DNA of 64,000 nucleotides, taken from positions 1 to 64,000 of the IMG/VR virus record IMGVR_UViG_3300030333_002570; one strand, written 5' to 3'. The notes beneath the pieces are model-generated. The model made no database searches. It worked only from the letters and a program-made list of their open reading frames with translations, and had not been told where the DNA came from. Every line of letters begins with the position of its first letter. Within the stretch, counting starts at the first letter, position 1. The translations under genes and the position numbers were made by a program. Origin of the DNA: a virus. Positions 46,902 to 62,119 of this stretch are shown here, in pieces.

Positions 46902-47369
46902 ATGAAATTGCGACCAACCAAGCAAGATGTGATCTTGAATCATACTTACACTTTCAAGTGTGATGCTACATTCGGTACACTATCTAAGGAGAGAGTTTAT
47001 AAATTATTCACAGATGGTAGAAGGGCATCAGGATTCTTAGAACTACAGTTAGAAGATTGGTTTGAAGGTCTTGAATTTGTAGATGGTAAAGGATATGACC
47101 ACATCAATCATTTGGTGGAGGGTCAACTGTATGATGCTAAATGTTTTACTAGACATGGTGCTAAATTCTGTTCATCAAAATATTTGGGTGTGGGTAGATC
47201 ATTAGATGTTAAAGAGCATGAAGCACACGCAGAAAATATAATTTATATTTTTACAGATGTAGTATCATTTCCTGAAGTAAGAGTTAGATTTGTAAAAGGA
47301 TCAGATTTAATTCAAACTTATAAAAAAGGTTCGATTCCATTTTCTCATAGAGATGATTTATTTGAATGA
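46902..47369 (+). CDS. Putative PD-(D/E)XK restriction-endonuclease-like protein
   Basis: GYD...YDAKCFT motif; overlaps the methyltransferase; TGa-TATAAT at 46871-79 favours ATG 46902. Confidence 0.5.
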   Translation: MKLRPTKQDVILNHTYTFKCDATFGTLSKERVYKLFTDGRRASGFLELQLEDWFEGLEFVDGKGYDHINHLVEGQLYDAKCFTRHGAKFCSSKYLGVGRSLDVKEHEAHAENIIYIFTDVVSFPEVRVRFVKGSDLIQTYKKGSIPFSHRDDLFE

Positions 47370-48141: not shown

Positions 48142-48149
48142 TATATAAT
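48121..48149 (+). promoter_or_regulatory. Strong sigma70 promoter
   Basis: TTGACT-N17-TATAAT. Confidence 0.8.
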
Positions 48150-48227
48150 ACTGACAAAGAAATTCGTGGAAGATACACCAATCGGAAGCAATTTCAAAAG
48201 TTAAACTAAACTTATCGAGGACATATT

Positions 48228-49361
48228 ATGTCGAAAGCACTAGAGGTGGGACAATGGTATACTTTACCTGGAATCCCAGATGTAGAAATAGCGGTATTAA
48301 TTACCAAAGCATTTTTAAAGTATCCTGAGTGGATAACTCAGAGAGATACAGAGAACAGACTTAAGAAGAAAGGTGTTATAGATCACCTAAGAAAACTATT
48401 TCCTACTCATCATATTGTAGCAGTTGGAGAATTAACTGAACAGGATGATTGGGAAGATAAAGATGGTAATAAGGAAGTATATGAAGCAGGTCATACTTGG
48501 AGACTTGATGCTAACACAAGAGCAAAAGTATGGGAAAGAGGTTTAGTTGATGAACTTCCTAAAGGTGTACTAGCAGTTAAGTTTAAGGGTAAAACTTTAA
48601 AAGATATAAGGAATATTTACTGGGCATTTGATAACCCAACAGCAGCAGAGTTAGCAGCAGAAGTTATTACTGGATGTCTTAAATCTCTTGGTATAGAGTT
48701 ACTAACTAAGAAGTTTAGGGATGGACAATTTGTAACTGCATTATCATATTGTTGTAAATTTGATGCACCAGATGTATATGGTACTAAAGGATTATGGTCT
48801 GAACCTGATGATAATTCAGTAACTATATCTGAATACAAAAGAACTCAAACTTTACATGCAGTTAGAGATTATGCTGATACAATTAAGGCAGTTGATGAAC
48901 TATTATCTAAGACTGGAATTGTACCATCTTTCGATCAAACATTTATAACAGCACTATTCTTATTCCATAGAAAGTACGGTTGCTTTGATGATAATGTAAC
49001 TAACCTATGTTTAAACCTTACAGGTAGACTTAAGGATGAAGATGGTGAACAGTTATTAATAGCAACTGCACCAAATCCAAGTGCTAAGTTAAATGCTACT
49101 GCATGGATTGATAGGGAAAATAACAGATCATTCTCTAATTTTCAAGAGCAATGTGTTATTAAAGACAGATCTAAAATGGAAGGTTTCTATCAAGGAGTTC
49201 CATTCTTTACCTACTGGTTATCAATAGCATCACAAAATGGTCTTAAGCATAGACAAAATAAAGGTGCAAAAGGTGGTTATACCAACTGGTTTGAAAATAC
49301 ATTCCTTAAGATTAATAAAAGAGAAGTGGTTGAAAAACTAGAGAAATCACTGTCAATCTAG
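48228..49361 (+). CDS. Hypothetical protein (377 aa), possible ParB/Srx-like N-terminal domain
   Basis: SD GAGGA; RLDANTR resembles a degenerate ParB lDG.hR motif. Confidence 0.7.
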   Translation: MSKALEVGQWYTLPGIPDVEIAVLITKAFLKYPEWITQRDTENRLKKKGVIDHLRKLFPTHHIVAVGELTEQDDWEDKDGNKEVYEAGHTWRLDANTRAKVWERGLVDELPKGVLAVKFKGKTLKDIRNIYWAFDNPTAAELAAEVITGCLKSLGIELLTKKFRDGQFVTALSYCCKFDAPDVYGTKGLWSEPDDNSVTISEYKRTQTLHAVRDYADTIKAVDELLSKTGIVPSFDQTFITALFLFHRKYGCFDDNVTNLCLNLTGRLKDEDGEQLLIATAPNPSAKLNATAWIDRENNRSFSNFQEQCVIKDRSKMEGFYQGVPFFTYWLSIASQNGLKHRQNKGAKGGYTNWFENTFLKINKREVVEKLEKSLSI

Positions 49362-49407
49362 AAACTGTCCACTAAATGCCCCATTTCATCCTGATCTGGG
49401 GTATATT
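49351..49407 (+). promoter_or_regulatory. Two-box early promoter, copy 2
   Basis: TGTCAAT-N7-CTGTC-N32-TATATT. Confidence 0.65.
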
Positions 49408-49427
49408 AATATTGTTGAGAAATTCAA

Positions 49428-49613
49428 ATGAAATTCTTTTCTGCCAAGACACAAATCTATGGCATCAAAAAAGCACTCAAAGCGAGTGAACGTGATCCAT
49501 TTCTTTATAATGAAGAAGAGATCATCAAACTAAAAACTTCTCTTCGCAAATTACGTGAAGAGCAAGAACAAACCCGACAAATTCAAAACGGAGGATTTGG
49601 TTACGATGTCTAA
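49428..49613 (+). CDS. Hypothetical protein
   Basis: 61-aa ORF after promoter. Confidence 0.7.
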   Translation: MKFFSAKTQIYGIKKALKASERDPFLYNEEEIIKLKTSLRKLREEQEQTRQIQNGGFGYDV

Positions 49614-49746
49614 AAGACTATTTGTTCCAAAAGTTGAATACGATGAAAACTTTGACAACTGTCAAGAGGAAGAAGACAGTTGGGTATCCTCAGTTTTAGG
49701 AACTGAAGATGATGCAATCTATGACGTACTTTCGGAGATTCAGTAA
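49606..49746 (+). CDS. Acidic hypothetical protein
   Basis: ATG 49606 with SD GGAGG. Confidence 0.6.
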   Translation: MSKRLFVPKVEYDENFDNCQEEEDSWVSSVLGTEDDAIYDVLSEIQ

Positions 49747-49937
49747 TGACAATTCCAAAGAAATTGCAACTTCTACTTGATGCTTATGATGATGGAGTTC
49801 TTCCTGAAGATTTACAAGTAGAAATGTGTCAGTTTATGATAGATTGTGACCTACACAATGAGTTGACACAGTATCAACAACTCTGCGATTATTACATTGC
49901 AGAAGGTTTATGTTATGAAGTATGTTTTGATTCCTGA
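49746..49937 (+). CDS. Hypothetical protein
   Basis: 63-aa coupled ORF. Confidence 0.7.
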   Translation: MTIPKKLQLLLDAYDDGVLPEDLQVEMCQFMIDCDLHNELTQYQQLCDYYIAEGLCYEVCFDS

Positions 49938-50299
49938 TGAATACTTACGAAGTCTTATTACAACGTGACATTGGCATAAACAAGACAGTTTATGTACACG
50001 ATTGTTATTATGAAGATGAAGCAAGATTACTTGCTGAGTCTCAATATGGACTTCCAGTTTTAAGAGTATTATATAAGGGATCTTCTAATAATAATACTAT
50101 GAATGATGTTCCTGAACCCTATTATGGTGGCACTTGGTTATCAACAATAGGGTCAGGAAATAGTTCTATTACTAATATATTAGCATTGCCATTTGGTATC
50201 TTAATTATTATATTATTAATAGAATTTTGGTGGTGGTTTGTTGCTATAACTTGCATAGGAATTGGGTGGAGAACTTATCAGTATATCAAGGACGATTAG
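49937..50299 (+). CDS. Hypothetical membrane protein
   Basis: C-terminal TM helices. Confidence 0.6.
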   Translation: MNTYEVLLQRDIGINKTVYVHDCYYEDEARLLAESQYGLPVLRVLYKGSSNNNTMNDVPEPYYGGTWLSTIGSGNSSITNILALPFGILIIILLIEFWWWFVAITCIGIGWRTYQYIKDD

Positions 50300-50426
50300 G
50301 CATTTATTTTTGTTAATTAGATGTCGAAATTCTAACATTATTATACTAAATAGTGGTAGAATTAAGGATAGCAAGATGAACTGAAAACTCTCTTGGTTAT
50401 GATTCAAAAGTTAAAAGGAGTTGGAT

Positions 50427-50594
50427 ATGTCACACAATTTAATATCTTCAAATCATTTAGCACAATGGAAACATGGTGTAAACGAAATTCCTGAATATCA
50501 GGATCAATTACTGGACGATTACTTTGAGTGCTTAATTGATTGTGAAGACGATCAATCTAGTTGTAGGAGGGTATGTAAGGAAATTCTTATGTGA
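50427..50594 (+). CDS. 55-aa four-cysteine protein (not in track)
   Basis: SD AAGGAG; MSHNLISSNHLAQW...DDYFECLIDCEDDQSSCRRVCKEILM (CxxxC-x6-CxxxC). Confidence 0.75.
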   Translation: MSHNLISSNHLAQWKHGVNEIPEYQDQLLDDYFECLIDCEDDQSSCRRVCKEILM

Positions 50595-50613
50595 CTATCT
50601 TACTAAATTCTAT

Positions 50614-50652
50614 AAAAAGAGGGTTTACAAACCCTCTTTTTTATTGTATAAT
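50614..50652 (+). terminator. Terminator hairpin fused to a promoter
   Basis: AAAAAGAGGGTT/AACCCTCTTTTT stem; TTTACA spanning the loop, N18, TATAAT 50647-52. Confidence 0.75.
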
Positions 50653-50674
50653 ACTCTATGAATACATCATTAAT

Positions 50675-50746
50675 ATGTGGTACATTATTTTTTGGACAAG
50701 TCTTATTATGTTCATACTTGTTAAAGTAGGTGCATTTAAGAAATGA
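50675..50746 (+). CDS. 23-aa hydrophobic peptide (not in track)
   Basis: MWYIIFWTSLIMFILVKVGAFKK; stop overlaps the methylase ATG. Confidence 0.5.
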   Translation: MWYIIFWTSLIMFILVKVGAFKK

Positions 50747-51708
50747 AAGATACGATATTATATGGTGACTGTCGTCAAACATTACCAGCATTTATTGATA
50801 ACGCACAAATGTGTGTTACATCCCCACCTTATTATGGATTGAGAGATTACGGTGGTAAAAGTGAACAAATAGGACAAGAACAAACACCAGAAGAGTATAT
50901 TGAAGAAATGGTAAATGTCTTTAGGTTAGTGAGAGATAACCTTAAAGATGATGGTGTGTTATGGTTAAACATAGGTGACACATATTATAATTATCGAAGT
51001 GATGGTAATTATCCTAAGCAAACTGTTAGTAAGACTAATCAAGATTTACCCTCATTTTCTCCTGCTAGAGGTAACAAATTAGAGGGGTTAAAGAGTAAAG
51101 ATTTGATCGGTATTCCTTGGATGTTAGCATTTGCATTACGAGCAGATGGATGGTACTTAAGGCAAGATATTATATGGCATAAACCTAATCCAATGCCAGA
51201 AAGTGTAAAGGATAGATGCACTAAAGCACATGAATATATCTTCCTATTAAGTAAAAGTAAGAACTATTATTATGACAATGAAAGTATAAAAGAACCTGCT
51301 AAAGATTGGGGAACTAGAGATAGAACTAATGGCAAATATCATAATGAAGGAACAGGATTAACACCTCATTCTGGACTCACTAAATCATATCCAACAAAGA
51401 ATAAACGTAGTGTATGGAGTATAACAAACAAACCATATAAGGGATCACATTTTGCTACTTTCCCACCTGATCTAATTGAACCTTGTATATTAGCAGGTAG
51501 TAGAAAAGGTGATATAGTATTAGATCCATTTATGGGTAGTGGCACGACTGCTATGGTAGCAAAGCAACTAGGACGGTATTATATCGGATGTGAACTGAAC
51601 GAGGACTATCGAGAATTGATAGAAAAACGTGTGACAGTCAACAAAGTGGAGCAAAATGCTTCACATTCTGAAACAAATGGGTTGATTGACCTATTGGGTA
51701 CTGTATAA
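50743..51708 (+). CDS. DNA amino-methyltransferase (N4C/N6A, beta class)
   Basis: CVTSPPYYGLRDY, IIWHKPNPMPES, HFATFP, VLDPFMGSGTT. Confidence 0.96.
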   Translation: MKDTILYGDCRQTLPAFIDNAQMCVTSPPYYGLRDYGGKSEQIGQEQTPEEYIEEMVNVFRLVRDNLKDDGVLWLNIGDTYYNYRSDGNYPKQTVSKTNQDLPSFSPARGNKLEGLKSKDLIGIPWMLAFALRADGWYLRQDIIWHKPNPMPESVKDRCTKAHEYIFLLSKSKNYYYDNESIKEPAKDWGTRDRTNGKYHNEGTGLTPHSGLTKSYPTKNKRSVWSITNKPYKGSHFATFPPDLIEPCILAGSRKGDIVLDPFMGSGTTAMVAKQLGRYYIGCELNEDYRELIEKRVTVNKVEQNASHSETNGLIDLLGTV

Positions 51709-51709
51709 T
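51632..51709 (+). promoter_or_regulatory. Two-box motif copy 3 (atypical spacing) plus -10, inside the methylase 3' end
   Basis: TGACAGT-N7-GTGGA; TATAAT at 51704-09. Confidence 0.5.
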
Positions 51710-51735
51710 ATGGGGGTAGTCAACTTTCAGCACTT

Positions 51736-52107
51736 ATGCCAGTTAAGTCTCCAACAAGGAAAACCGCAGCAACAGCAGCAACTCCTCGTAAAAGACGCAC
51801 TCGTAAGACAACCGCTTCAACACCTAAAAAGGTTTCTATAAATAAGTCACAATCTGCAAAAGTTATTGTGACTGAAGAACCAAAAGTTGAAGTAAAAGTA
51901 GACACAAAACCTACTCAAATTGCACCACCAAAACCTAATCTTTCTCGTGAAGATTACATTGCTGATATAAAAGCAAGATGGGCAATTCATACCTATGAAG
52001 TTAATGCCCTCGGTGCAGATTTAGTTAAAGGTTATAATCTAGTAACACCATATCTTCAAAAAGGTGTTACTTATGTCAAAGACTCTTACAAGAGAGCATT
52101 TGCATAG
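51736..52107 (+). CDS. Hypothetical protein with Lys/Arg/Thr-rich N-terminal tail
   Basis: KSPTRKTAATAATPRKRRTRKTTASTPKK, then a helical domain. Confidence 0.75.
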   Translation: MPVKSPTRKTAATAATPRKRRTRKTTASTPKKVSINKSQSAKVIVTEEPKVEVKVDTKPTQIAPPKPNLSREDYIADIKARWAIHTYEVNALGADLVKGYNLVTPYLQKGVTYVKDSYKRAFA

Positions 52108-52163
52108 ACCAGATTACAAAGTGTCTACTAAGACCCCACAAGGGGTCTTTTTTATTGTATATT
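52107..52163 (+). promoter_or_regulatory. Two-box early promoter copy 4 with embedded terminator hairpin
   Basis: GACCAGA-N7-GTGTC-N32-TATATT; AAGACCCC-acaa-GGGGTCTT-TTTT within the spacer. Confidence 0.7.
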
Positions 52164-52167
52164 AAAA

Positions 52168-52233
52168 GAGTGGAAGGCAAGGGTGAGCGACCCCAGTGGA
52201 AAATGCTCTTTAAGTCGAACCTCTTCCACACTC
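52168..52233 (+). ncRNA. Unnamed structured 5' leader RNA of the helicase gene
   Basis: GTGGAAG (52170-76)/CTTCCAC (52223-29) closing helix; GGGT/ACCC hairpin; loop GAGC complementary to GCTC (52205-08). Confidence 0.55.
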
Positions 52234-52255
52234 AACATTATTAAGGAGATCGTCT

Positions 52256-53506
52256 TTGACAGACACATTACGACCTCATCAACAACGTGCTTATGATAAA
52301 ATGATTGAGCATGATTGTGGACAAATTGTTATACCTACTGGTGGTGGTAAAACATATATTATGATTGAAGATTGCAAGAGGTTAGTAACAACAACACCAC
52401 GCAATCCTCAGACTATTGTTGTAGTTGCACCACGTATATTACTTGCTAATCAGTTATCAGAAGAGTTTGAATCTGAGATTGATAATGTTAAGATAGCACA
52501 CGTACATTCTGGTGAAACTCATCATTTTAGCACCACAGATTGTAGGGATTTAACACATTGGAATAGCACTAATCCTCAGTATGATAAGTTAATCTTTACC
52601 ACTTATCATTCACTACATAGAGTATTAGATAGTATGGTAAATATTGATAGGATATATTTTGATGAAGCACATAATGGCACTGGTAAAAACTTCTTTAAGC
52701 AGATAAAGAGAGTTGCTAAGTTAAACATAGCAAGATACTTCTTTACTGCTACACCACGCATTTCACGCTCTAAGAATAACATTAGTGCGGAACGTGGTAT
52801 GAACAATGCGGAAATATGGGGTGATATATTAGAACAAACAGCAGCACAAGAGTTAATAGATAGTGGCACTATTTTATTCCCTAAAGTTATACCATTTGAG
52901 ACAGATAGAGAGAGGACTAAGTTAAATGCACATGAAGTAGATAGTGATAACTTAAAGGACATATTGACTAGCATAACTGATACAAACCCTAAGGTACTTG
53001 TGTCTGCTCCAACAACAAGAATACTATGGAATATGCTCTCACAAACTGATATTAAAGATTGGTTAATTGAGCGAGAGTATAACATTATGCACATCACATC
53101 TAAGCATGGTGCTATCATTAATGGTAAGAAAGTTGGTAGAGAAGAGTTCTTCAAGACACTAACATTGTGGGGTAAGGATGATACTAAGAAGATGATAATC
53201 TTCCATTATAGTATACTATCAGAAGGGATAAATGTTCCAGGTTTGACTCATTCAGTTATGCTAAGAAATCTACCTAATATTGAAATGGCACAAACAATAG
53301 GTAGAGTAATTAGAATACATCAAAAGGATGTAGATGATATGAATTCAGGTAAAATACCTGCTGGTGCTTATAACTTATACCATAAAAGTTTTGGTCAAAT
53401 ATGTGTGCCAATATCAGGCAAATATGGTAAAAGAATAGCAGATAGACTACAATCAGTCGTATCGTATATCTTTATAGAGGGTATTCCACCACTTTCATAT
53501 GTTTAG
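52256..53506 (+). CDS. SF2 DEAH helicase (ResIII-like), no nuclease domain evident
   Basis: PTGGGKT, FDEAH, FTATP, ILSEGINVP, QTIGRVIR; TTG start with SD AAGGAG. Confidence 0.92.
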   Translation: MTDTLRPHQQRAYDKMIEHDCGQIVIPTGGGKTYIMIEDCKRLVTTTPRNPQTIVVVAPRILLANQLSEEFESEIDNVKIAHVHSGETHHFSTTDCRDLTHWNSTNPQYDKLIFTTYHSLHRVLDSMVNIDRIYFDEAHNGTGKNFFKQIKRVAKLNIARYFFTATPRISRSKNNISAERGMNNAEIWGDILEQTAAQELIDSGTILFPKVIPFETDRERTKLNAHEVDSDNLKDILTSITDTNPKVLVSAPTTRILWNMLSQTDIKDWLIEREYNIMHITSKHGAIINGKKVGREEFFKTLTLWGKDDTKKMIIFHYSILSEGINVPGLTHSVMLRNLPNIEMAQTIGRVIRIHQKDVDDMNSGKIPAGAYNLYHKSFGQICVPISGKYGKRIADRLQSVVSYIFIEGIPPLSYV

Positions 53507-53508
53507 TG

Positions 53509-53564
53509 TGACAGTACAAGTAGTGTCTACTATTTTCCCCATTGTCCCTAAAATCGGTTATTAT
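53509..53564 (+). promoter_or_regulatory. Two-box early promoter, copy 5
   Basis: TGACAGT-N7-GTGTC-N31-TATTAT. Confidence 0.75.
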
Positions 53565-53593
53565 ATAAGAGTAAACAAATCACAAGGAGTTTA

Positions 53594-53713
53594 ATGAGCA
53601 CTCTATCACAGCAAATTTACGATCAGTTGGTTAATCCAACACCAGTGATAAAGTATTATTTCCTTACACCTTTTTACAAGCAAACTAACAACAAAAGGAG
53701 GAATTCTAAGTGA
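53594..53713 (+). CDS. 39-aa hypothetical protein (not in track)
   Basis: SD AAGGAG, first ORF after promoter. Confidence 0.55.
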   Translation: MSTLSQQIYDQLVNPTPVIKYYFLTPFYKQTNNKRRNSK

Positions 53714-53838
53714 GTACATTACATCATGAGAGCATACTTGAAACATTATTTGAAGAAGTATGCGAAGAGTATCCTCAATTTAGCGAGGAACAATGCGAGG
53801 TTATCGCACAACAACGTTTCGAGGATTTATGCCAATGA
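53710..53838 (+). CDS. 42-aa acidic hypothetical protein (not in track)
   Basis: GTG start, SD AGGAGG; MSTLHHESILETLFEEV...RFEDLCQ. Confidence 0.65.
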   Translation: MSTLHHESILETLFEEVCEEYPQFSEEQCEVIAQQRFEDLCQ

Positions 53839-54011
53839 ATAATCTTGATTGTCTATCTGAAGTATTAGAAGACTTCTGCACTAAGTATAACTTAGAGTTT
53901 ATGAGTGCAGATGATCTTTTATACGGTGATTCTGAAGGTAAATTAACAAATTACCAGAGAGATTGGTTAAGAAACTATATCTCTATCTGGGACATTATTG
54001 TAAACTACTAA
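53835..54011 (+). CDS. Hypothetical protein
   Basis: ATGA overlap; MNNLDCLSEVLEDFC... Confidence 0.65.
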   Translation: MNNLDCLSEVLEDFCTKYNLEFMSADDLLYGDSEGKLTNYQRDWLRNYISIWDIIVNY

Positions 54012-54021
54012 GGAGGATTTC

Positions 54022-54240
54022 ATGGCAAAAGTTAAAGAATTTACATACTCATTTCGCATCCTATGTGAACATGACGATGCACCAAATCCTGTTCATTTAT
54101 GTGAAGAAATACAGGCATATTTGAACTCTAATTTAGATTATTATAATGAAGAATTAGGTGAGCATGTTAATGCTGAAGTTACAGGATATAGGGTAGAGAT
54201 AGATAAAATGACACCCTATATTGCTCAAGATGAGTATTAA
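54022..54240 (+). CDS. Hypothetical protein
   Basis: SD AAGGAGG. Confidence 0.7.
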   Translation: MAKVKEFTYSFRILCEHDDAPNPVHLCEEIQAYLNSNLDYYNEELGEHVNAEVTGYRVEIDKMTPYIAQDEY

Positions 54241-54244
54241 TTAA

Positions 54245-54463
54245 ATGATAACATTACGCATACATGAGAATAACACAGGCACGATAGATTTCGAGTCCGA
54301 AGAACAATTAGAGGCATGGATTGATGCTCCTAATTATAAACAAGTACAGTGGGAATATACAGAGAAAGATGTATTTCATAGGACATATTTTGTAGAACGT
54401 AACACTAACTCTATTAACCCAACTTGCGAGGACATTAGTAATGCCATCTGGAACAAATCGTGA
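54245..54463 (+). CDS. Hypothetical protein
   Basis: 72-aa ORF. Confidence 0.55.
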   Translation: MITLRIHENNTGTIDFESEEQLEAWIDAPNYKQVQWEYTEKDVFHRTYFVERNTNSINPTCEDISNAIWNKS

Positions 54464-54692
54464 TGCTAATCTAATCATCACACCAAAGACTTCAGCATCT
54501 ATTGAATTAAGTTTTGATCAAATTAGCACTCTATTGTATATAATAGAGGGATATTGTCAAGGTGATGATTACAATCAAGACGATCAATTTGCTAGTGATT
54601 GTGATAACTTAATTGAGATATTAGAGCAAGCAAGTGAAACAATACCATTGGATGATGATCCTCTAATTGATGAATTGAATTACTACAAGTAA
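54441..54692 (+). CDS. Acidic hypothetical protein
   Basis: 83-aa ORF, SD GAGGA. Confidence 0.6.
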   Translation: MPSGTNRDANLIITPKTSASIELSFDQISTLLYIIEGYCQGDDYNQDDQFASDCDNLIEILEQASETIPLDDDPLIDELNYYK

Positions 54693-54697
54693 TAGTG

Positions 54698-54754
54698 TGA
54701 CAGTACGATTAGTGTCACACAATTTTCCTATAATGCCTATAAATCGGGTATTAT
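54698..54754 (+). promoter_or_regulatory. Two-box early promoter, copy 6 (perfect 8-bp inverted repeat)
   Basis: GTGTGACA-N10-TGTCACAC (54695-54720); GTGTC-N32-TATTAT. Confidence 0.8.
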
Positions 54755-54782
54755 AATAGTATAAACAAATTTAAAGGATTTT

Positions 54783-55262
54783 ATGACTGTTGCAACTGCT
54801 GAATTTAGACAAGAACTTCAAGAGAAGTTAGCAGACAATGTATTACTTTGGACTGAGCAGTTATGTGACAATCTTGAGAAGAATTACTTCAATTATCACA
54901 AGAGAATGATAACAAATAACTCTCAAAGATATACAGAGGGTGAGTTATCAGAGTATGCACAATCTCAGTTAGAAAGTATCAACAATGGCACTGCTAATCT
55001 AATGAAGTTTCGTATACAATCAGGTAAAAAGTACTATAAAATTATACAACAAGATTATGACACTTTCCAAGATAGAAATGAATATAGGGATGGAAGTGTT
55101 CACGCATTTGTTGATAAGAAAACAGGTGAAGTTTATAAACCTGCATCATGGAAATCTCCTGCAAAGCATGTAAGATATGATATGAGAATTATCAAACATC
55201 GTGAGTTTTTACATAACTCAGACAACGTAGATTGGGCAGGTGGTTATCTCTATATGAGATAA
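54783..55262 (+). CDS. Conserved phage early protein
   Basis: GKKYYKII, SVHAFVDKKTGEVYKPASWKSPAKHVRY, widespread in phages. Confidence 0.8.
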   Translation: MTVATAEFRQELQEKLADNVLLWTEQLCDNLEKNYFNYHKRMITNNSQRYTEGELSEYAQSQLESINNGTANLMKFRIQSGKKYYKIIQQDYDTFQDRNEYRDGSVHAFVDKKTGEVYKPASWKSPAKHVRYDMRIIKHREFLHNSDNVDWAGGYLYMR

Positions 55263-55302
55263 TCTTCTCTCACTAATTATTACTTTTCATTCCCTTATTA
55301 CA

Positions 55303-55680
55303 ATGGCAATTTATTCACAAAAAGCAAATCCTAACGCAACTAATAGTGAATTAGATGCTAAGGTTATTGTTAAACATCCCAACCTAACTTCACTTCAATT
55401 AGATGAAGTTAGAGACCAATATGCAGAGATAGTTCTTGATAGAATGGACTATAAAGATCTAGAGCAATATGTATATGATTCTCTATCAGATTACTACGGT
55501 AAAATGTCACAAACTGAACTAAGAGAACATATCATCGAAATGGAAAATAGTGGTGATCCCACTGATAACTTATTTGATGAATTAGCAGAGAATGTAACAA
55601 TTAGGGATTTGATGAAAGAGAAAGATAGTGACGAAGATAACACTTGTATGCAAACATTTATTCCAGGATTTCATGACTAA
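55303..55680 (+). CDS. Hypothetical protein
   Basis: 125-aa ORF. Confidence 0.7.
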   Translation: MAIYSQKANPNATNSELDAKVIVKHPNLTSLQLDEVRDQYAEIVLDRMDYKDLEQYVYDSLSDYYGKMSQTELREHIIEMENSGDPTDNLFDELAENVTIRDLMKEKDSDEDNTCMQTFIPGFHD

Positions 55681-55852
55681 TTTAATTCAACAATGGTCAC
55701 AAACTTACTTCACTGATTTAACACCAGAGAAGCATCAAACTAATAATAATTGGTTTGAACTTATGCTCTCTATGTTAACACCAGAGGGTGAATTGTATGT
55801 CCCTTGTTTAAACAAATCATTCAACAAATTAGGGGAAGAAATTAATGACTAA
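55673..55852 (+). CDS. Hypothetical protein
   Basis: ATG 55673 with SD AGGA. Confidence 0.6.
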   Translation: MTNLIQQWSQTYFTDLTPEKHQTNNNWFELMLSMLTPEGELYVPCLNKSFNKLGEEIND

Positions 55853-56006
55853 CGTCACAAAGTACACTCGTTCAGGTGTTAATGGGAAGTATATTACATG
55901 CCCTAAATGTCAACAATCAAACAAGGTATTTCACTTTAGTTGGAGTGCATTAACCTGTTTATGTTGCAGAGAAAGTATTAACAAACTCGATTGGATTATT
56001 ACCTAA
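55845..56006 (+). CDS. 53-aa zinc-ribbon-like protein (not in track)
   Basis: CPKC...CLCC; TRSGVNGKYITCPKC..VFHFSWSALTC. Confidence 0.7.
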   Translation: MTNVTKYTRSGVNGKYITCPKCQQSNKVFHFSWSALTCLCCRESINKLDWIIT

Positions 56007-56007
56007 A

Positions 56008-56157
56008 ATGACATACTACACAGTCGAAACTGATCTCTTTACTGTTGACTTTAAGGATCAAATTACCTACCTTGAATGTTTACGAACAGCAGCAGATTTA
56101 GGGGTTAATTTAGATCATTATCTTCTTGAATTTCAAATAGAAGATGAAGAGAATTAG
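56008..56157 (+). CDS. 49-aa acidic protein (not in track)
   Basis: Fills the gap up to the next two-box motif. Confidence 0.5.
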   Translation: MTYYTVETDLFTVDFKDQITYLECLRTAADLGVNLDHYLLEFQIEDEEN

Positions 56158-56159
56158 TG

Positions 56160-56217
56160 TGACAGTGGACAAAGAGGTACAAGGTCGCTTGATTTTTGCC
56201 CCATTTCATGCGATACT
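56160..56217 (+). promoter_or_regulatory. Two-box early promoter, copy 7 (degenerate box 2, with -35)
   Basis: TGACAGT-N7-GAGGT; TTGATT-N17-GATACT. Confidence 0.6.
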
Positions 56218-56250
56218 ATGTATATAATCAAGTTTTACGAATTTTTCAAT

Positions 56251-56553
56251 ATGTCAAAATCTCTTTTTTCACAGTCCATCAACCTTTGCGATGACTATCT
56301 AGGTTTCGAGTGGTCAAGAGGTGTAGTCACCTCAATGTTTGACACTTACCGCCGTCAAAACGATTTAGATCCAAATCTTTCAATCTACCACTATGGTAAT
56401 GATCGTTTTGAAGTCAAAACTATGGTTTACGATGATTCAAAAGGTTGCATCATCGGTGACGAGATACATATCGGCACTTTTGATAACATCTTCGATGCTG
56501 AAGATTGTGCTGAAACTTATCTCAAAGATCTACTATTAGACCTCGGTGTTTAA
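56251..56553 (+). CDS. Hypothetical protein
   Basis: ATG 56251 downstream of promoter. Confidence 0.7.
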   Translation: MSKSLFSQSINLCDDYLGFEWSRGVVTSMFDTYRRQNDLDPNLSIYHYGNDRFEVKTMVYDDSKGCIIGDEIHIGTFDNIFDAEDCAETYLKDLLLDLGV

Positions 56554-56595
56554 TATTAGATCTTTTTTCTTGCTCACTATTTTACATTATTTGTT

Positions 56596-56796
56596 ATGCC
56601 ATCTTTCACAGTTAACAACAAAGATTACTCTCACAAAGAGTTAAATAAGATTTACGATTTCTTCACTCAAGATCAATGGGATGTGATAGATCAGGCACTT
56701 GATTGTTATGCTCAATCTGAAAAATATGTTGGAGTTGTAAACGATACAGGCGAAATTAGAGATGCTATGTATCAACTATTAAGGACAGCATACTAA
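56596..56796 (+). CDS. Hypothetical protein
   Basis: 66-aa ORF ending at the next two-box motif. Confidence 0.65.
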   Translation: MPSFTVNNKDYSHKELNKIYDFFTQDQWDVIDQALDCYAQSEKYVGVVNDTGEIRDAMYQLLRTAY

Positions 56797-56799
56797 GTG

Positions 56800-56855
56800 T
56801 GACAGTACATTTAGTGTCCATATTTTTCCCCTAAGTATCAATTTTCCCTTATAAT
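56800..56855 (+). promoter_or_regulatory. Two-box early promoter, copy 8
   Basis: TGACAGT-N7-GTGTC-N31-TATAAT. Confidence 0.8.
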
Positions 56856-56881
56856 AAATGTATACCAAACAAAGAGGATTT

Positions 56882-57163
56882 ATGAACAAAACTTCTAAGA
56901 TCATGCAAAGAATCTTACAGGTTGAGAATTTCCAGAATGTAGCATGTGTATGTGCTAATTGGAAAGAATTCACAGAAGAATTAAGCGAGTGGGGTGTATA
57001 TGGGTGTGCTAAGATAGATTTTGATGATGAAGATCTTGACGTTTCATTATTAGATAGATTCATCAAATCTGAAAATGGATATGAAAGAACTGGTGACGAT
57101 TGGAACCTAATTTATAACAATGGTAAAAACCTAGTTAATAACTTTGGGGGTGTATTCGCATGA
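56882..57163 (+). CDS. Hypothetical protein
   Basis: ATG 56882 with SD GAGGA. Confidence 0.7.
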   Translation: MNKTSKIMQRILQVENFQNVACVCANWKEFTEELSEWGVYGCAKIDFDDEDLDVSLLDRFIKSENGYERTGDDWNLIYNNGKNLVNNFGGVFA

Positions 57164-57396
57164 ATAGTTTAAAAGAATTTGTTGACTATGTTTGGTCATT
57201 TTATAATACTGAAGATGGGTTATATCCTATCGATGGTATAACTAGGCAAGACATTTATGATGCCTTTTATGTGTACAAACACAGATTATTACATGCACAA
57301 AATGATAATTACACTTGGGGATATGGTGATAGTTTAGATAGAGAAAGGGTAAGAGATATAATGCTAGAAAATAACAATTTATCCTGGAGGATTTAA
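57160..57396 (+). CDS. Hypothetical protein
   Basis: FYN..DGLYPI...W..GDSLDRE.VRDI motif. Confidence 0.75.
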   Translation: MNSLKEFVDYVWSFYNTEDGLYPIDGITRQDIYDAFYVYKHRLLHAQNDNYTWGYGDSLDRERVRDIMLENNNLSWRI

Positions 57397-57397
57397 C

Positions 57398-57652
57398 ATG
57401 TTTAAAAGTGAAGAATTCGGACGTATTTTCTGGGTTGATGATAACTATGATCTGCAATCATGCCCACAAAATGTTGATGGAACAGGTGATTTTGACTGTT
57501 CTGATTATGTCGAAGACTGGACAGATTGGGAGGGGGTTAGTATAAAGAAATTGCTAGGAATTCACAAGGCATGTATACTTAATAAGAAAGATTACGCTGG
57601 TTCATTAACACTTACAGATGCCCATTTTTCAGGACTAAGTAACAATGAATAG
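57398..57652 (+). CDS. Hypothetical protein
   Basis: SD GGAGG; GRIFWVDD. Confidence 0.7.
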   Translation: MFKSEEFGRIFWVDDNYDLQSCPQNVDGTGDFDCSDYVEDWTDWEGVSIKKLLGIHKACILNKKDYAGSLTLTDAHFSGLSNNE

Positions 57653-57789
57653 ATATAATATGTCTCGCATTATTGTGGATCGCCGCCGATATTTTTCTTA
57701 CAATGAGTATACATTTCCAATTAATTCAATGGAACTTATTAACAACTACTTTCGATAGTTTACGTTATGAAGAGATAAACAAACCAACT

Positions 57790-57942
57790 ATGACTTACCT
57801 CGATTTGTTACAACAATTAAATGAACTTCCAAAAGAAAAGTTACAACAAACCGTCACAATTTACGACAAAGATTGTGAAGAATACATCCCCACAGATAGC
57901 ACACTATTTGTCAAGAATGACAAGGTACATTTACAAATCTAA
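57790..57942 (+). CDS. Hypothetical protein
   Basis: MTYLDLLQQLNELP.E.LQQTVTIYD. Confidence 0.6.
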   Translation: MTYLDLLQQLNELPKEKLQQTVTIYDKDCEEYIPTDSTLFVKNDKVHLQI

Positions 57943-57963
57943 TTGTTACTCAGGGGCGATAAT

Positions 57964-58221
57964 ATGAGCAAGAAATATGATTTTAAAAAAGGTGAACTTA
58001 TCAGCATAAAAGATGATAAAGGACGGATAAATTTCATAGGAAAAGAATATTTTACGCTTACAACTCATGAGTGGAAAGATGATAACAAACTACATGGAAT
58101 TGCACAGGTTAATGTATTAGTTTTTAGATCAGATTGGGATGATATTGTTTATCATGAACGAGAGAAATTAGAGGGCAATTTGTATAAGTCACAAGAGCAT
58201 AGATACGAGGATGTACAATGA
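57964..58221 (+). CDS. Hypothetical protein (SH3-like beta pattern)
   Basis: G.I.FIG.EY.TL motif; ATG 57964. Confidence 0.65.
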   Translation: MSKKYDFKKGELISIKDDKGRINFIGKEYFTLTTHEWKDDNKLHGIAQVNVLVFRSDWDDIVYHEREKLEGNLYKSQEHRYEDVQ

Positions 58222-58358
58222 AACAATTACCAGACGATTACATGCACAAAAATGTTACTCACGGAGAACAGATTAACTACGTCTGGATAACATTAAAGGA
58301 ACTCGTAATTATGCAATGGGAATATATACGAAAAAACAGATTATGGAGGAGTTATTAA
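58218..58358 (+). CDS. 46-aa hypothetical protein (not in track)
   Basis: ATGA overlap, SD GAGGA. Confidence 0.5.
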   Translation: MKQLPDDYMHKNVTHGEQINYVWITLKELVIMQWEYIRKNRLWRSY

Positions 58359-58530
58359 CAACTATGTGGAAAACTTCCGTTTAATTGTTGATAACTTTAA
58401 ATGGTTAATTAAATCTAGTTGTGTTTACTTTAGTGTGGAAAAACATGTGGAGAAAGTGTTGCCTTAGCACGTTAATTACCGACTTGTCAATAACATTTAA
58501 CAACATGCAATATTCGCCGAGTTACTAACA
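58352..58530. other. Cluster of DnaA-box-like 9-mers with an AT-rich segment (oriC-like or DnaA-titrating locus)
   Basis: TGTGGAAAA at 58365 and 58434; one-mismatch boxes at 58352, 58386, 58446 and 58485; 58395-58433 is 30/39 A+T; non-coding. Confidence 0.55.
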
Positions 58531-58575
58531 AGAATTGCCCAGAAATCAGTCAGGGGTTAGTATAAACAATTCATG

Positions 58576-58632
58576 TGCCAGTGAGGAAAGTGTCCACTAG
58601 TTACTGACAACTACCTGGAAATCATGTATTAT
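58576..58632 (+). promoter_or_regulatory. Two-box early promoter, copy 9
   Basis: TGCCAGT-N7-GTGTC-N32-TATTAT; the 23-nt GTATTATAATAGTATAAACAAAT is identical to copy 6. Confidence 0.8.
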
Positions 58633-58660
58633 AATAGTATAAACAAATTCAGGTTAATTT

Positions 58661-58978
58661 ATGAGAGTTATTGAAAAGAACATGTGCAGAGCGATTTCTA
58701 ACAAGAAACCCTTCTCATCTTCCAACACTTCAGTAACATTTTCCGCAGACAATTCTCAAGCATTTGTTTATCTTCACGGCAACCACATTGCAACGGTAAG
58801 TGATAACAATCTTCAAATATTTGATGGAGGTTGGCAATCAAATACCACGAAAAGTAGGTTGAACTCGTTATTAGAAACCTTCACAGGATTAGGCAGAGGT
58901 TTGTATCAACGAAACTGGCAATGGTTCGTACAAAGTAACAACAACCCCTTCTATTCTGGAATGATTTTTAATACTTGA
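58661..58978 (+). CDS. Conserved phage early protein
   Basis: VYLHGNHIA, GGWQSNTTKSRLN.LL, QRNWQWFV. Confidence 0.8.
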   Translation: MRVIEKNMCRAISNKKPFSSSNTSVTFSADNSQAFVYLHGNHIATVSDNNLQIFDGGWQSNTTKSRLNSLLETFTGLGRGLYQRNWQWFVQSNNNPFYSGMIFNT

Positions 58979-59030
58979 CAAGATAAACAGTTTCTGTTAT
59001 ACTAGAGGGGTAAATAACCCCTCTTTTTTA
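58975..59030 (+). promoter_or_regulatory. Consensus sigma70 promoter overlapping a terminator hairpin
   Basis: TTGACA-N17-(TGt)TATACT 58998-59003, then AGAGGGG-taaataa-CCCCTCT-TTTTT. Confidence 0.75.
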
Positions 59031-59230
59031 TGCCTAATTAACAAATAGTATGCCACTATCTATAAACATATACAGGGCAAATCGCAGTCCTGGTGGGGGT
59101 TCTTGGTCTTTTTTCCGGCCCTTATATTAAAAAAGCAAACTACCCTAACCTACAAAGGTTCCCCAGAGAGAGATATATTATGAAACATTTCTTGTCTCCT
59201 CTATATAAAAAAATCCTCCAGAAAAAAATT

Positions 59231-59443
59231 ATGTCCTTAGAGTTTTCACAAGCATTTCAAGATGAACGCACAAGAGTCTTAGAACATCTTGTACGTAGGG
59301 AAGGTCATTTAGATACTAGGATGTATGAATTCTCGCAAGATATCGCCGAGAAAGGAATATTTGAAGATGTCGAAGCACTATATACCTTGTGGGAGCAATG
59401 GAAGTCTAAGTTCCCAACCCCACAGATAATAAATCGCCTATAA
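59231..59443 (+). CDS. Hypothetical protein
   Basis: ATG 59231 preferred; the longer track ORF runs through low-complexity, probably non-coding sequence. Confidence 0.65.
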   Translation: MSLEFSQAFQDERTRVLEHLVRREGHLDTRMYEFSQDIAEKGIFEDVEALYTLWEQWKSKFPTPQIINRL

Positions 59444-59447
59444 GAGT

Positions 59448-59609
59448 ATGAGCAAACGATTCACAACTAAATTGGATGAAGACGATTACGGCGATCTTGT
59501 TCTTACGATTCCATACGATATTTGTGAAGAGTTAGGTTGGAATACAGAAACACCTCTTCAATATGATGTCAATGAAGATGGATTTCACTTGAAGAAACAA
59601 GAAGAGTAA
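59448..59609 (+). CDS. AbrB/MazE/SpoVT-like small DNA-binding protein (not in track)
   Basis: TTKLDEDDYGDLVLTIPYDICEELGWNTETPLQYDVNEDGFHLKK fits the swapped-hairpin pattern G.l.lP......lgw..g..l. Confidence 0.7.
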   Translation: MSKRFTTKLDEDDYGDLVLTIPYDICEELGWNTETPLQYDVNEDGFHLKKQEE

Positions 59610-59611
59610 TC

Positions 59612-59797
59612 ATGATTTACATACTATACAATGATGAGCATAAGATTGAAGGAGAGTTTTCCACAGTCGAGAAATTGGAGTCATATATGGATTCCATTCG
59701 AGAACATCGTAATGAGCGTTGGCCTAAGACACCAAGGATGACTTGTTTTGATTACATTAAGTCTATTGGATGGTTCTTTGATATAAAGGATGTATGA
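59612..59797 (+). CDS. Hypothetical protein
   Basis: 61-aa ORF. Confidence 0.65.
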   Translation: MIYILYNDEHKIEGEFSTVEKLESYMDSIREHRNERWPKTPRMTCFDYIKSIGWFFDIKDV

Positions 59798-60390
59798 ACC
59801 TTTTCCCTTCTATAGTACATTGTATCGATATTCCCGATTACAGTGAAATAAAAGGCAGCCTCATAGGTCAATTGCTCAAGGAGCGTGCCTTGGATCCACA
59901 AGGATTAAAGAAATCTAATTGTGGCGGGTGGCATTCGAGGACTAATCTACATCAAGACGATAATAGTATAGTAAAGGATACGATATTTGATAATGTCGCA
60001 TGGTATTTCTCTAGTAATAAGATTCTTAAGGAGAATTCTAGACTAGAGTTTACTGCTATGTGGACTATGATTAATGGTTTAAACAATTATAATGAGTACC
60101 ATATGCACTCTGGATCTGATATAGCAGGTGTATTTTGGATTAAGACACCAGAAGGTTGTGGAAATCTATATTTTAATTCTCCACATGCATATAATACTTT
60201 TGCTGAAGAGATGCATTATAGTGAAGAATATAAGAAAGAGAATAATTTTTATTCATCCTATTGGTTTCCTGCTACTGAAGGACGTATTATAATGTTTCCA
60301 TCATCTCTTTATCATTCGGTTAAACCTAATCAGTCTGGTTTAGAACGAATATCTGTATCTTTTAATATTACATTGTCAACTGATACATAA
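59794..60390 (+). CDS. 2OG-Fe(II) oxygenase (TIGR02466-like)
   Basis: W..IN...NYN.YHMH.GS.IAGVFWI, FPS.LYH.V.PN, RISVSFN. Confidence 0.92.
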
Positions 60391-60412
60391 TATGGTTACC
60401 TTATATACAACT

Positions 60413-60709
60413 ATGGCTACCTATAATGTTACATTGATCGACACCGAAGGCAACGAAACGACATTTGAATGTCCTGAAGATGCCTATATACTGGACCAAG
60501 CAGATGAGGAGGGTGTAGATGCACCTTATTCATGCCGAGCAGGTGCTTGTAGTACTTGTGCTGGTAAAATTCTAGAAGGTACAGTTAACCAAGAGGAGCA
60601 ATCATTCTTGGATGATGATCAAGTAGAAGAAGGTTTTGTGTTAACTTGCGTTGCATATCCTACTTCTGATGTTAAAATACGTTTAGGCGAGGAGGAAAAC
60701 ATTTACTAA
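60413..60709 (+). CDS. petF: Plant-type [2Fe-2S] ferredoxin
   Basis: [15 protein letters not shown]...EQSFLDDDQ...[13 protein letters not shown]. Confidence 0.98.
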
Positions 60710-60936
60710 TGGCTTTACACATGAGAGAACAACTATTGAGAGCAGTTTTAGCACATGCTCAAGGTGAAATTGAAAAACATAAGGTGAACGTTAACGTTTA
60801 TCTAGAAAATCCTGCAGGTATTGGAGAACATTCCGATATTACAGAGGCAATTCAGGTCGAATTAGATAAGATTGCTCGATATCATGATCAGATAGAGGTA
60901 ATCAACAAATATTTTAGGTCGCCTACAGAGAGATGA
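60709..60936 (+). CDS. Conserved cyanophage hypothetical protein
   Basis: H.VNV.VYL.NP.GIGEHSDI.EAI..ELD.IA.Y.D. Confidence 0.8.
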   Translation: MALHMREQLLRAVLAHAQGEIEKHKVNVNVYLENPAGIGEHSDITEAIQVELDKIARYHDQIEVINKYFRSPTER

Positions 60937-61029
60937 TCGTAGTTAATGGCGAGAATATTAGATTATTACTCGTCATGATACTAGGTGTTGTTTGGTTTTA
61001 CCTTTTAAATGAACAATTGAGGAAAAATA

Positions 61030-61197
61030 ATGAAGATTGATGGTATTTCCGACTGGGAAAAGGAATATCTTACTATGGATGTGACTATTTCTAAGAGAGA
61101 AAAGGAAATTCTTGAAGGTGCTGACATAAAATCCCATGAAGGGATGGTATATGGTAGAATGTATGCCGATTGGAAACGCAGAAAGGGGTATCCATGA
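61030..61197 (+). CDS. 55-aa hypothetical protein (not in track)
   Basis: MKIDGISDWEKEYL...SHEGMVYGRMYADWK. Confidence 0.65.
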   Translation: MKIDGISDWEKEYLTMDVTISKREKEILEGADIKSHEGMVYGRMYADWKRRKGYP

Positions 61198-61320
61198 GGT
61201 TTCCTTACTGTAAATCCCATATGCTCGTTGTAGGTGGCAAGGCAACTCGTTGGTTTCCACCTATAGACCTTAGTACTATTGAGGATAAGATCACAAATTT
61301 GAAACTTAGAGGTTATTGGA

Positions 61321-61497
61321 ATGACTTATGATGAAGACAAGTTCATGAAAATGGACAAAGGTGAGTTAATTAGTGAATTATTACAGATTAGTTCTTTACT
61401 AGGTGGTACAATGCAAAGAGTAGAGACACTTAACTCTATGGGTAGATCATCTAAGAAAATTATTATTGAATACGATGTCAAGCAAAGAAAAGATTGA
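61321..61497 (+). CDS. 58-aa hypothetical protein (not in track)
   Basis: MTYDEDKF...LNSMGRSSKKIIIEYD. Confidence 0.6.
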   Translation: MTYDEDKFMKMDKGELISELLQISSLLGGTMQRVETLNSMGRSSKKIIIEYDVKQRKD

Positions 61498-61714
61498 TAA
61501 GTGGCAAGATAATCAAGAAGCACATGAAGCAATCAACATGTGTCTTGAAGCAATTGCTGGTAGATTAGTAGAGATAGAAAAACGTCTCCAAGAGCTCCCT
61601 ACACCTGATAAAACCTACTATCAACCACCAGATGAGGACAAAGATCTCGATTTATTCCAAAATTTTACTAAAATTTACGAAAAACTGGACAAAATCGAGA
61701 AAAAAGTGCTATAA
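61475..61714 (+). CDS. Hypothetical protein
   Basis: ATG 61475; ELPTPDKTYYQP. Confidence 0.7.
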   Translation: MSSKEKIDKWQDNQEAHEAINMCLEAIAGRLVEIEKRLQELPTPDKTYYQPPDEDKDLDLFQNFTKIYEKLDKIEKKVL

Positions 61715-61766
61715 TTAGTGTATTCGCCGCGAGCGATCCACATTTTAACGCAAATTAAGGTATTTT

Positions 61767-61913
61767 ATGGCAAAATCCGTTGCTTGGGGCTCAAATACGA
61801 ACTATATTGAGCCTAAACCCAAGAAAACCCGTCAAGGACGTTCTGCAAGAACAAAACTTTCAGCGACCTCACGGAACCATGCAAAAAAGAAGTATAGAGG
61901 ACAAGGAACATGA
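61767..61913 (+). CDS. 48-aa basic protein typical of the region before g25 (not in track)
   Basis: PKKTRQG.S..TK.SATSRN..KKKYRGQG. Confidence 0.75.
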   Translation: MAKSVAWGSNTNYIEPKPKKTRQGRSARTKLSATSRNHAKKKYRGQGT

Positions 61914-62119
61914 TTCATTTTGCATCTGCTTCACTAAATCTTAACGAGGCATGGAACTTGTCTTGGTCAGAAGGCATCCAATTCATACTAGTACTTGCTT
62001 TTGTCTATTGGTTGAAGGTAAAAATTGATACACGAGCTGGTTTAGGTAAGAAAAAACTAAGACAGTTGAAGGGTGTTATAGTAGAGGCAATTAAAGAAGC
62101 CAACAATGAGGGCAAATAA
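61910..62119 (+). CDS. Small membrane protein
   Basis: One TM helix and a basic C terminus. Confidence 0.65.
   Translation: MIHFASASLNLNEAWNLSWSEGIQFILVLAFVYWLKVKIDTRAGLGKKKLRQLKGVIVEAIKEANNEGK

Follow-up and report, generated by a model that had tools for sequence, protein, structure and literature searches.

Consensus DnaA boxes as an optional module of a non-coding control cassette in T4-like cyanophages

Introduction

Textbooks present T4 and its relatives as phages that need no host initiator to replicate, and we know of no origin that has been mapped in any cyanomyovirus. The T4 origins oriF and oriG pair a promoter with a downstream unwinding element at which an R-loop forms, and oriE carries 12-nt iterons (PMC3016281). 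Other mobile replicons do engage the host protein. In phage lambda, host DnaA acts at box-like sites downstream of pO and controls transcription at ori-lambda, modulating transcription without itself opening the origin (PMC3985674); iteron plasmids and phage P1 carry accessory arrays of host DnaA boxes beside their origins (PMC4980987). Host DnaA boxes in the control regions of lambda, P1 and iteron plasmids are thus already known. Our literature search, mostly outside subscription journals, returned nothing on DnaA boxes in T4-like phages or cyanophages.

Bacterial origins provide the reference for what such boxes should look like. The basal unwinding system (BUS) of bacteria needs DnaA-trios on the 3' side of its boxes, and for cyanobacteria the BUS study works with TTTTCCACA as the species-specific box (PMC8287927 and its supplement). 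The origin of S. elongatus reads, in order, TTTTCCACA TTTTCCACA GCCC CTACTACTACTG, and degenerate oriC boxes are tabulated for Prochlorococcus and marine Synechococcus (PMC8287927).

An earlier note on the DNA of a T4-like marine cyanophage had pointed to a cluster of cyanobacterial-type DnaA boxes around an AT-rich segment and had offered three explanations: an origin, a DnaA sink or control of a neighboring promoter. Here we describe this locus, its relatives in other cyanophages, and how each explanation fares.

Results

A dense cluster of DnaA boxes in a non-coding gap

The window is a stretch of 64,000 nucleotides taken from a contig of 130,092 bp (36% G+C; completeness 74% by CheckV). 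The gap of about 300 bp that had been called non-coding is bounded by two open reading frames (Table 1), the second of which belongs to the Kyanoviridae Gp96 family and is followed by genes for a 2OG-Fe(II) oxygenase and then a ferredoxin. Each of the box-like words named in the earlier note was recovered where it had been placed, and two of the three perfect copies of TTTTCCACA in the contig lie in the gap; the third is at 59657, inside ORF 59612-59797. In 3000 dinucleotide shuffles of the gap the mean number of perfect boxes was 0.009 (2 observed) and the mean number of boxes with at most one mismatch from TTTTCCACA was 0.22 (3 observed). None of the 3000 shuffles reached either observed count, which bears out the suspicion that the cluster is unlikely by chance. 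The genome-wide density scan that had been proposed as a check gave a concordant result: TTATCCACA with up to one mismatch occurs 44 times in the contig, and the five matches within one 200-bp window at the gap are the contig maximum, making this the densest cluster in 130 kb.

The near matches were a mixed set. TGTGGAGAA at 58446-58454 is a good box, and TTATCAACA at 58386-58394 is probably a decayed real box, since the related contig L353 reads TGTGGAAAC there. The remaining three are not boxes: TTATTGACA (58485-58493) coincides with the invariant GTCAA/TTGACA element of the cassette core described below, TTATTAACA (58352-58360) overlaps the stop codon of the upstream ORF and TTACTAACA (58522-58530) is altered in a 99%-identical relative. 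The loose set as a whole (TTWTNCACA with at most one mismatch) is mildly enriched (5 observed against a mean of 1.6, with 58 of 3000 shuffles reaching 5), and we therefore count three good boxes and one decayed box, which share a single orientation. We also considered GTTAYYRACAA, present five times in both orientations between 58351 and 58610, and rejected it as a motif family because it is only partly kept in L353 and L354 and because two of the five coincide with the GTCAA of the core and with the −35 of the promoter.

Words within one mismatch of TTTTCCACA number 39 in the contig, and 13 of these fall within the 12-kb early region at 50000-62000, where about 3.6 would be expected. Also in the window, AGTGGAAAA and TCTTCCACA (52195-52230; 27 bp start to start, 18 nt between) lie upstream of a 416-aa helicase-like ORF at 52256-53506; they form the inverted repeat GTGGAA / TTCCAC and look like hairpin arms, not DnaA boxes.

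Table 1. Features of the gap and its borders (positions in the window)
Feature	Position	Strand	Remarks
Upstream ORF, 46 aa	58218..58358	+	Bounds the gap; weak match to phrog_17434
Non-coding gap	58359-58660		Between ORF 58218-58358 and Gp96-family gene 58661-58978
DnaA box 1, perfect	58365..58373	-	TTTTCCACA on minus, TGTGGAAAA on plus; unchanged in L352, L353 and L354
AT-rich patch	58379..58417		39 bp, 82% A+T; separates boxes 1-2 from the pair; includes cassette block AAATGGTTAATTAAAT
Degenerate box 2	58386..58394	-	TTATCAACA on minus, TGTTGATAA on plus; 21 bp from box 1
Tandem DnaA-box pair	58434..58454	-	TGTGGAAAA-aca-TGTGGAGAA on plus; 12-bp period; members 58434-58442 (0 mismatch) and 58446-58454 (1 mismatch), 3-bp spacer; variable slot of the cassette
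Invariant cassette core (candidate leftward promoter or two-part protein site)	58461..58490	-	TTGACA (58490-58485), 18-nt spacer, TAAGGC (58466-58461) preceded by TG; alignments A1 and A3
Upstream palindrome	58573..58598	+	ATGTGCCAGT-N6-AGTGTCCACT; one of a nine-copy promoter family
Sigma-70-like promoter	58604..58632	+	CTGACA-17-TATTAT; 10/12 matches; precedes the Gp96-family gene; conserved in L353
Downstream gene, Kyanoviridae Gp96 family	58661..58978	+	PF23790, E 1.9e-42; phrog_554

The boxes are retained while the gap diverges

The gap has diverged by 17-25% in two relatives. In L353, whose Gp96 is 98% identical, 52 of 302 gap columns are changed and 23 bp are inserted, and none of the 27 box positions differs (P 0.005). 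In L354, with a Gp96 of 73% identity, 74 of 302 columns are changed and one of the 27 box positions (P 0.004); the two tests share ancestry and are not independent of each other. The single change in L354 converts TGTGGAGAA into a perfect TGTGGAAAA, so that its pair reads TGTGGAAAAaggTGTGGAAAA, and the spacer of the L353 tandem is acc. Judged from these alignments, the boxes appear to be under constraint.

Coding capacity and structured RNA were also considered for the gap. ORF 58366-58467 was rejected as a gene because it contains stops in L353 and L354, and so was the minus-strand ORF 58405-58506, which lacks its start codon in L352 and L353 and is interrupted by a stop in L354. A third frame, ORF 58421-58528 (35 codons, GTG start), is open in the window, L353 and L354 and interrupted by a stop in L352; no ribosome-binding site was found for it, and it is therefore probably no gene. 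No Rfam family reached its gathering score anywhere in the window, and a tRNA search of the window, seven cassette loci and phage S-PM2 found none. We likewise set aside a non-coding RNA in the cassette, since 15 cassettes folded together yield a weak consensus structure on the plus strand (−9.4 kcal/mol, covariation term −0.51, one compensatory pair) and none on the minus strand (−0.16).

The gap is one version of a cassette common to many Kyanoviridae

By alignment, the gap is the form that a non-coding control cassette common to many Kyanoviridae takes in this phage. We define the cassette here by alignment (A1, 18 cassettes); it has no published family. Its parts follow one another in a constant order: a front slot with one to four DnaA boxes; CTAAATGGTTAAAAAAACATAGGTA; a variable slot; GTTGTTGGCTTAGCACG, nine variable bases and CGAAAGTCAA; a GTGNCAC...GTGNCAC palindrome; a sigma-70-like promoter; and usually a long A-tract/T-tract block. 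The fixed parts are the AT-rich block AAATGGTTAA, the invariant core and the palindrome-type early promoter. The core consensus is TTAGCNC-N9-(C)GA-N2-3-GTCAA, with TTAGCAC and CGA forms, which reads TTGACA-N17/18-TGCTAAG on the minus strand. In the window the AT block occupies 58398-58424 and the core consensus 58464-58490, followed by the palindrome and a −10 at 58627-58632. Compared with other cassettes, the window has its box pair in the variable slot, directly against the core. The A-tract/T-tract block between promoter and gene, present in S-PM2, S-RSM4, S-CAM1 and S-CAM3, is absent from the window and from the whole contig.

A blastn search with the gap of S-CAM1 matched 57 phage records, among them S-PM2, S-RSM4, Syn1, S-RIM32, S-RIM44, S-CAM4, several ACG-2014 phages, S-WAM2, S-H38 and Sf phages, and the conserved block begins exactly at the box pair. 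In S-CAM1 and S-CAM3 the tandem TGTGGAAAA-ACC-TGTGGAAAA, that is the 21-mer TGTGGAAAAACCTGTGGAAAA, lies in an unannotated gap of the equivalent early-gene region, and the same 21-mer is found in more than 118 IMG/VR contigs. Cassettes in phage records and IMG/VR contigs carry two to four boxes before the common core, with three in S-PM2. When loci were chosen by Gp96 and not by boxes, the core was found within 3 kb in 12 of 49, and in 10 of these 12 cassettes two or more perfect boxes precede it by 60-110 nt. Scanning IMG/VR with the pattern TTAGCACN{7,12}CGAN{2,3}GTCAA gave 116 matches, of which 13 were real cassettes; the pattern is too loose and was therefore used solely for box presence or absence.

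At the S-PM2 locus (L432; AJ630128, 18544-20089) the cassette contains TTTTCCACAacgtTGTGGAAAAagcTGTGGAAAA. The tRNA features of AJ630128 overlap both coding sequences and the cassette, and this annotation looks shifted, as ARAGORN detects none at these positions.

Cassettes with and without DnaA boxes

The expectation that the boxes would be conserved in relatives held for L353 and L354 and for many cassettes but not for S-RSM4, which keeps the cassette core in a genome of 194 kb that is free of perfect boxes; MbCM1 has a single one. In S-RSM4 and six IMG/VR cassettes, ATTGAGAATCAAT palindromes occupy the front slot in place of boxes. The boxes are thus an optional, exchangeable input module. 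The ATTGAGAATCAAT palindrome may be the site of a different regulator; it presumably resembles a Fur-type box. In the box-less cassettes of S-RSM4 (L003, 606-700), L258, L264, L265 and L330, two or three copies of ATTGAGAATCAAT, with TTCTCAATAAG inverted, were seen in the front slot.

Among eight phages, a small sample for any comparison by host genus, a tight pair or cluster of perfect boxes was found in all five from Synechococcus: S-RIM32 (five boxes, all in the cassette region), S-CAM1 (12; reversed control word 0), S-CAM3 (13; reversed control word 2), Syn9 (four, with an inverted pair 24 bp start to start) and S-SM1 (five, with an inverted pair 31 bp start to start). The three Prochlorococcus phages have no such pair or cluster, with four scattered boxes in P-SSM2, one in P-SSM4 and six scattered in P-HM1. 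S-CAM1 (HQ634177) and S-CAM3 (KU686197) carry most of their perfect boxes outside the cassette, as isolated, scattered copies. The early region of S-RIM32 (61859-61880), Syn9 (52565-52597) and S-SM1 (48835-48874) contains inverted pairs of perfect boxes at 13-31 bp start to start, the one in S-RIM32 being a second site 1 kb from its cassette.

Several other classes of viral contig in IMG/VR (L010, L041, L115, L013, L017, L074, L082 and others; 27-56% G+C) have three to six perfect boxes around TGTGGAAAAACCTGTGGAAAA with unrelated flanks, and DnaA-box arrays thus appear to occur in more virus groups than the cassette carriers.

Two promoter-like elements near the boxes

The earlier note had placed an early promoter at 58576. 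There is a promoter here, but 58576 falls in the upstream palindrome and the −10 lies at 58627-58632. The palindrome, homologous to TGTGACAC...AAAGTGGCACA of other cassettes, is the ninth and last of nine copies of GTGTGACAGT-N6-AGTGTCACAC spread over 45149-58598 in the early region, each with a −10-like box about 28-30 bp later. Because its palindrome is one of these nine copies, the rightward promoter of the gap is an ordinary member of a promoter family; the boxes and the core are a special addition at a single copy. The Gp96-family gene starts 29 bp after the rightward −10 with no A/T-tract block between, and the box pair is 150 bp from the rightward −35.

The second element is the core itself. 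In alignments A1 and A3, TTAGCNC and GTCAA are invariant and the spacing between them is fixed, while the spacer sequence varies freely, so that the core is a candidate leftward promoter or a two-part protein site. Other cassettes read TTGACT-N17-TAAGCC on the minus strand. The −10 of the leftward element, TAAGGC, is non-canonical in lacking the final T, and a leftward promoter is therefore something we only infer. If it is one, its predicted start at about 58454 is the edge of the box pair, which would occupy about +1 to +21, and the element (58490-58461) points into the 39-bp AT-rich patch.

The gap is not a bacterial-type origin

The proposed AT-rich segment is real but short. Its best 39-bp window is in the top 0.64% of genome windows, and its block AAATGGTTAATTAAAT aligns with AAATGGTTAAAAAAACATAGGT of other cassettes; at the 100-bp scale the A+T content of the gap is only in the top 7.8% of windows. 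A BUS comprises one or two tandem consensus boxes no more than 3 bp apart, a short GC-rich spacer and three or more DnaA-trios (3'-GAT-5', middle A), the trios lying no farther than about 16 bp 3' of TTTTCCACA. The pair at 58434-58454 has the tandem arrangement. On the 3' side of the boxes, the minus-strand sequence next to the pair is CTAAAGTAAACACAAC and that next to box 1 is TAGTTGTTAATAAC, and neither contains three N-T-N in a row; no trio run is found in the S-CAM1 cassette either, and the flank on this side of the boxes is unconserved in other cassettes. The GC-skew analysis that had been suggested shows no inflection at the gap: across the 130 kb the cumulative curve climbs monotonically, without changing direction at 58 kb. 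Because skew in T4-like phages largely tracks transcription, this is weak evidence, and we discarded skew as an origin marker. Taken together with the S-RSM4 cassette, whose genome has no box at all, the lack of trios, the 39-bp patch and the monotonic skew tell against the idea of an oriC mimic, and the gap is not a replication origin of the bacterial type.

The boxes match those of cyanobacterial oriC and would be read by host DnaA

Five filamentous cyanobacteria each have a single genomic copy of the relatives' 21-mer TGTGGAAAAACCTGTGGAAAA. Four of these copies are placed past the end of dnaA and 266-422 bp upstream of dnaN, and in the fifth genome dnaN is on another contig; the 21-mer is part of the layout box-acc-box-N13-box ... 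TTTTCCACAagTTTTCCACA. The same 21-mer is found in many other bacterial phyla. Among 401 cyanobacterial genomes, 40 contain the perfect tandem, all of at least 4.4 Mb, and none of the roughly 200 genomes of 1.5-3.0 Mb does. Counts of the perfect box do not exceed those of its reversed control in five small genomes, just one of which has a perfect box within 300 bp of dnaN. The small genomes are taken as picocyanobacteria, probably the host group, from size alone. Since the boxes tabulated for Prochlorococcus and marine Synechococcus are degenerate, the phage boxes are closer to consensus than those of the likely hosts.

We considered a phage-encoded DnaA-like binder and rejected it, as a search of the 74% complete contig for DnaA domain IV (PF08299) gave no match; without a gene for this DNA-binding domain in the contig, the binder would be host DnaA. 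There is good support for taking these words to be host-type DnaA boxes: their agreement with the cyanobacterial consensus is exact, they are kept under divergence and the relatives' tandem is identical to the dnaN-proximal pair. On these comparisons host DnaA probably binds the boxes, and such binding is the economical reading of them.

Discussion

What binding would accomplish is a separate question. We lean, with some reserve, towards the view that host DnaA docks at the gap as an optional, exchangeable regulatory input to the cassette promoters. Binding would be cooperative at the tandem pair with its 12-bp period. Leftward transcription would start at about 58454 and run through the box pair into the AT-rich patch and on to box 1, and bound DnaA would block or modulate its passage into the patch; alternatively, bound DnaA would loop to the rightward promoter 150 bp off. 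In either case docking would probably tie the activity of the cassette promoters to the amount or state of the host initiator. Of the three explanations offered earlier, the action of DnaA on the adjacent promoter fits the anatomy best, with the amendment that the pair abuts a second, leftward promoter-like element (58490-58461). Several points weigh against the docking reading. TAAGGC is a poor −10, and the leftward element may be a protein site instead of a promoter; 150 bp to the rightward −35 is far for simple activation or repression; and perfect boxes near dnaN are few in the sample of small cyanobacterial genomes.

It is possible, though we think it rather unlikely, that the cassette is an origin for the first round of replication, either through an R-loop in the adjacent AT-rich DNA, as at T4 oriF and oriG, or through DnaA-assisted opening of the AT patch before recombination-dependent replication takes over. 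The cassette is a single-copy, conserved, gene-free module with promoters, host-initiator sites and an AT patch flanked by boxes (58365-58454), and most relatives have a block of A-tracts and T-tracts after the rightward promoter that looks easily melted. T4 origins likewise combine promoter and unwinding element with no motif in common (PMC3016281), and host DnaA-box arrays stand beside the origins of P1 and iteron plasmids (PMC4980987). Against this, the A/T-tract block is missing from the 130-kb contig, where the gene begins 29 bp after the −10; no DnaA-trios adjoin the boxes; the patch is just 39 bp; the skew, weak evidence as it is, does not turn; and the counts in S-RSM4 (0), MbCM1 (1), P-SSM4 (1) and P-SSM2 (4, scattered) argue that boxes are not required in this virus family.

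That the boxes form a DnaA sink, with tandem sites multiplied on phage genomes drawing DnaA from the host oriC and stopping re-initiation, seems improbable to us. The E. coli datA locus and chromosomal titration sites set a precedent. The phage boxes surpass the oriC-proximal boxes of Prochlorococcus and marine Synechococcus in likeness to the consensus, the perfect tandem is absent from about 200 small cyanobacterial genomes, and S-CAM1 and S-CAM3 have 12-13 perfect boxes genome-wide against 0-2 of the reversed control. The genome described here, however, offers merely three to four sites; the boxes always stand at one fixed spot in a promoter cassette, which a sink would not need; and several relatives have none. 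T4-like cyanophages in any case shut off and degrade host DNA.

Equally improbable is that the words are not DnaA sites at all but sites of a phage or other host protein, part of a non-coding RNA or small gene, or a decaying remnant: the core and palindrome promoters are clearly read by some factor or factors and ORF 58421-58528 is open in three of four relatives, but the words match the DnaA consensus and the oriC tandem exactly, spacer included, they appear to be under constraint, no Rfam family or tRNA was found, the fold is weak and the gap ORFs have stops or lost start codons in close relatives.

An extension of the origin reading, which we regard as doubtful, is that the cassette is the first-round origin of T4-like cyanophages in general and its front slot a socket for interchangeable host-factor inputs. 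If so, the inputs would be DnaA boxes in many phages of Synechococcus and, in other phages, ATTGAGAATCAAT palindromes; the replication or physiological state of the host would gate origin firing or early transcription, and the host initiator would be used after all by T4-like phages, which are regarded as independent of it. Boxes that are optional, and replaced by another motif in some lineages, do point to a modular regulatory socket, which could help to account for the differing host ranges of cyanophages or for how far each depends on the physiology of its host. Consensus-perfect boxes at a fixed control region in the cultured phages S-PM2, Syn9, S-SM1 and S-CAM1 allow a cheap and concrete test of whether abundant ocean viruses read the replication state of their hosts.

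Among known systems, the cyanobacterial oriC arrays (PMC8287927) share with the gap the 9-mer TTTTCCACA and a tandem with a 3-bp spacer, and the relatives' TGTGGAAAAACCTGTGGAAAA is, letter for letter, the sequence found once at the oriC of Oscillatoriales, Microcoleus and Kamptonema. Unlike oriC, the phage array has no DnaA-trios, GC-rich spacer or second, inverted box pair, it does not adjoin dnaA or dnaN, and it numbers just three to four boxes. As for a datA-type sink, the three to four boxes per phage genome are consensus-perfect, and any sink effect would depend on phage copy number. The resemblance to the T4 origins is loose, consisting in a T4-like phage whose cassette promoters are joined to AT-rich DNA. 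The 12-bp period of the box pair recalls the oriE repeats, with two copies at this period here and at most three in relatives, fewer than an iteron set of the oriE type. T4, for its part, relies on MotA-dependent middle promoters and no host DnaA, and the window lacks the long unwinding element of oriF and oriG.

Iteron plasmids and P1 differ in that no Rep protein or iteron set was identified here and in that the boxes are dispensable across relatives; in common is a mobile replicon with a few consensus boxes beside its own control elements, although recruitment of host DnaA is putative in our case. Lambda, a temperate siphovirus, has an origin that is mapped and an O/P initiator of its own, whereas the phage described here is T4-like, with a gp59/gp41-type replisome and a leftward promoter that we infer. 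As at lambda pO/pR, however, putative host-DnaA sites lie just downstream of that leftward promoter in a phage control region.
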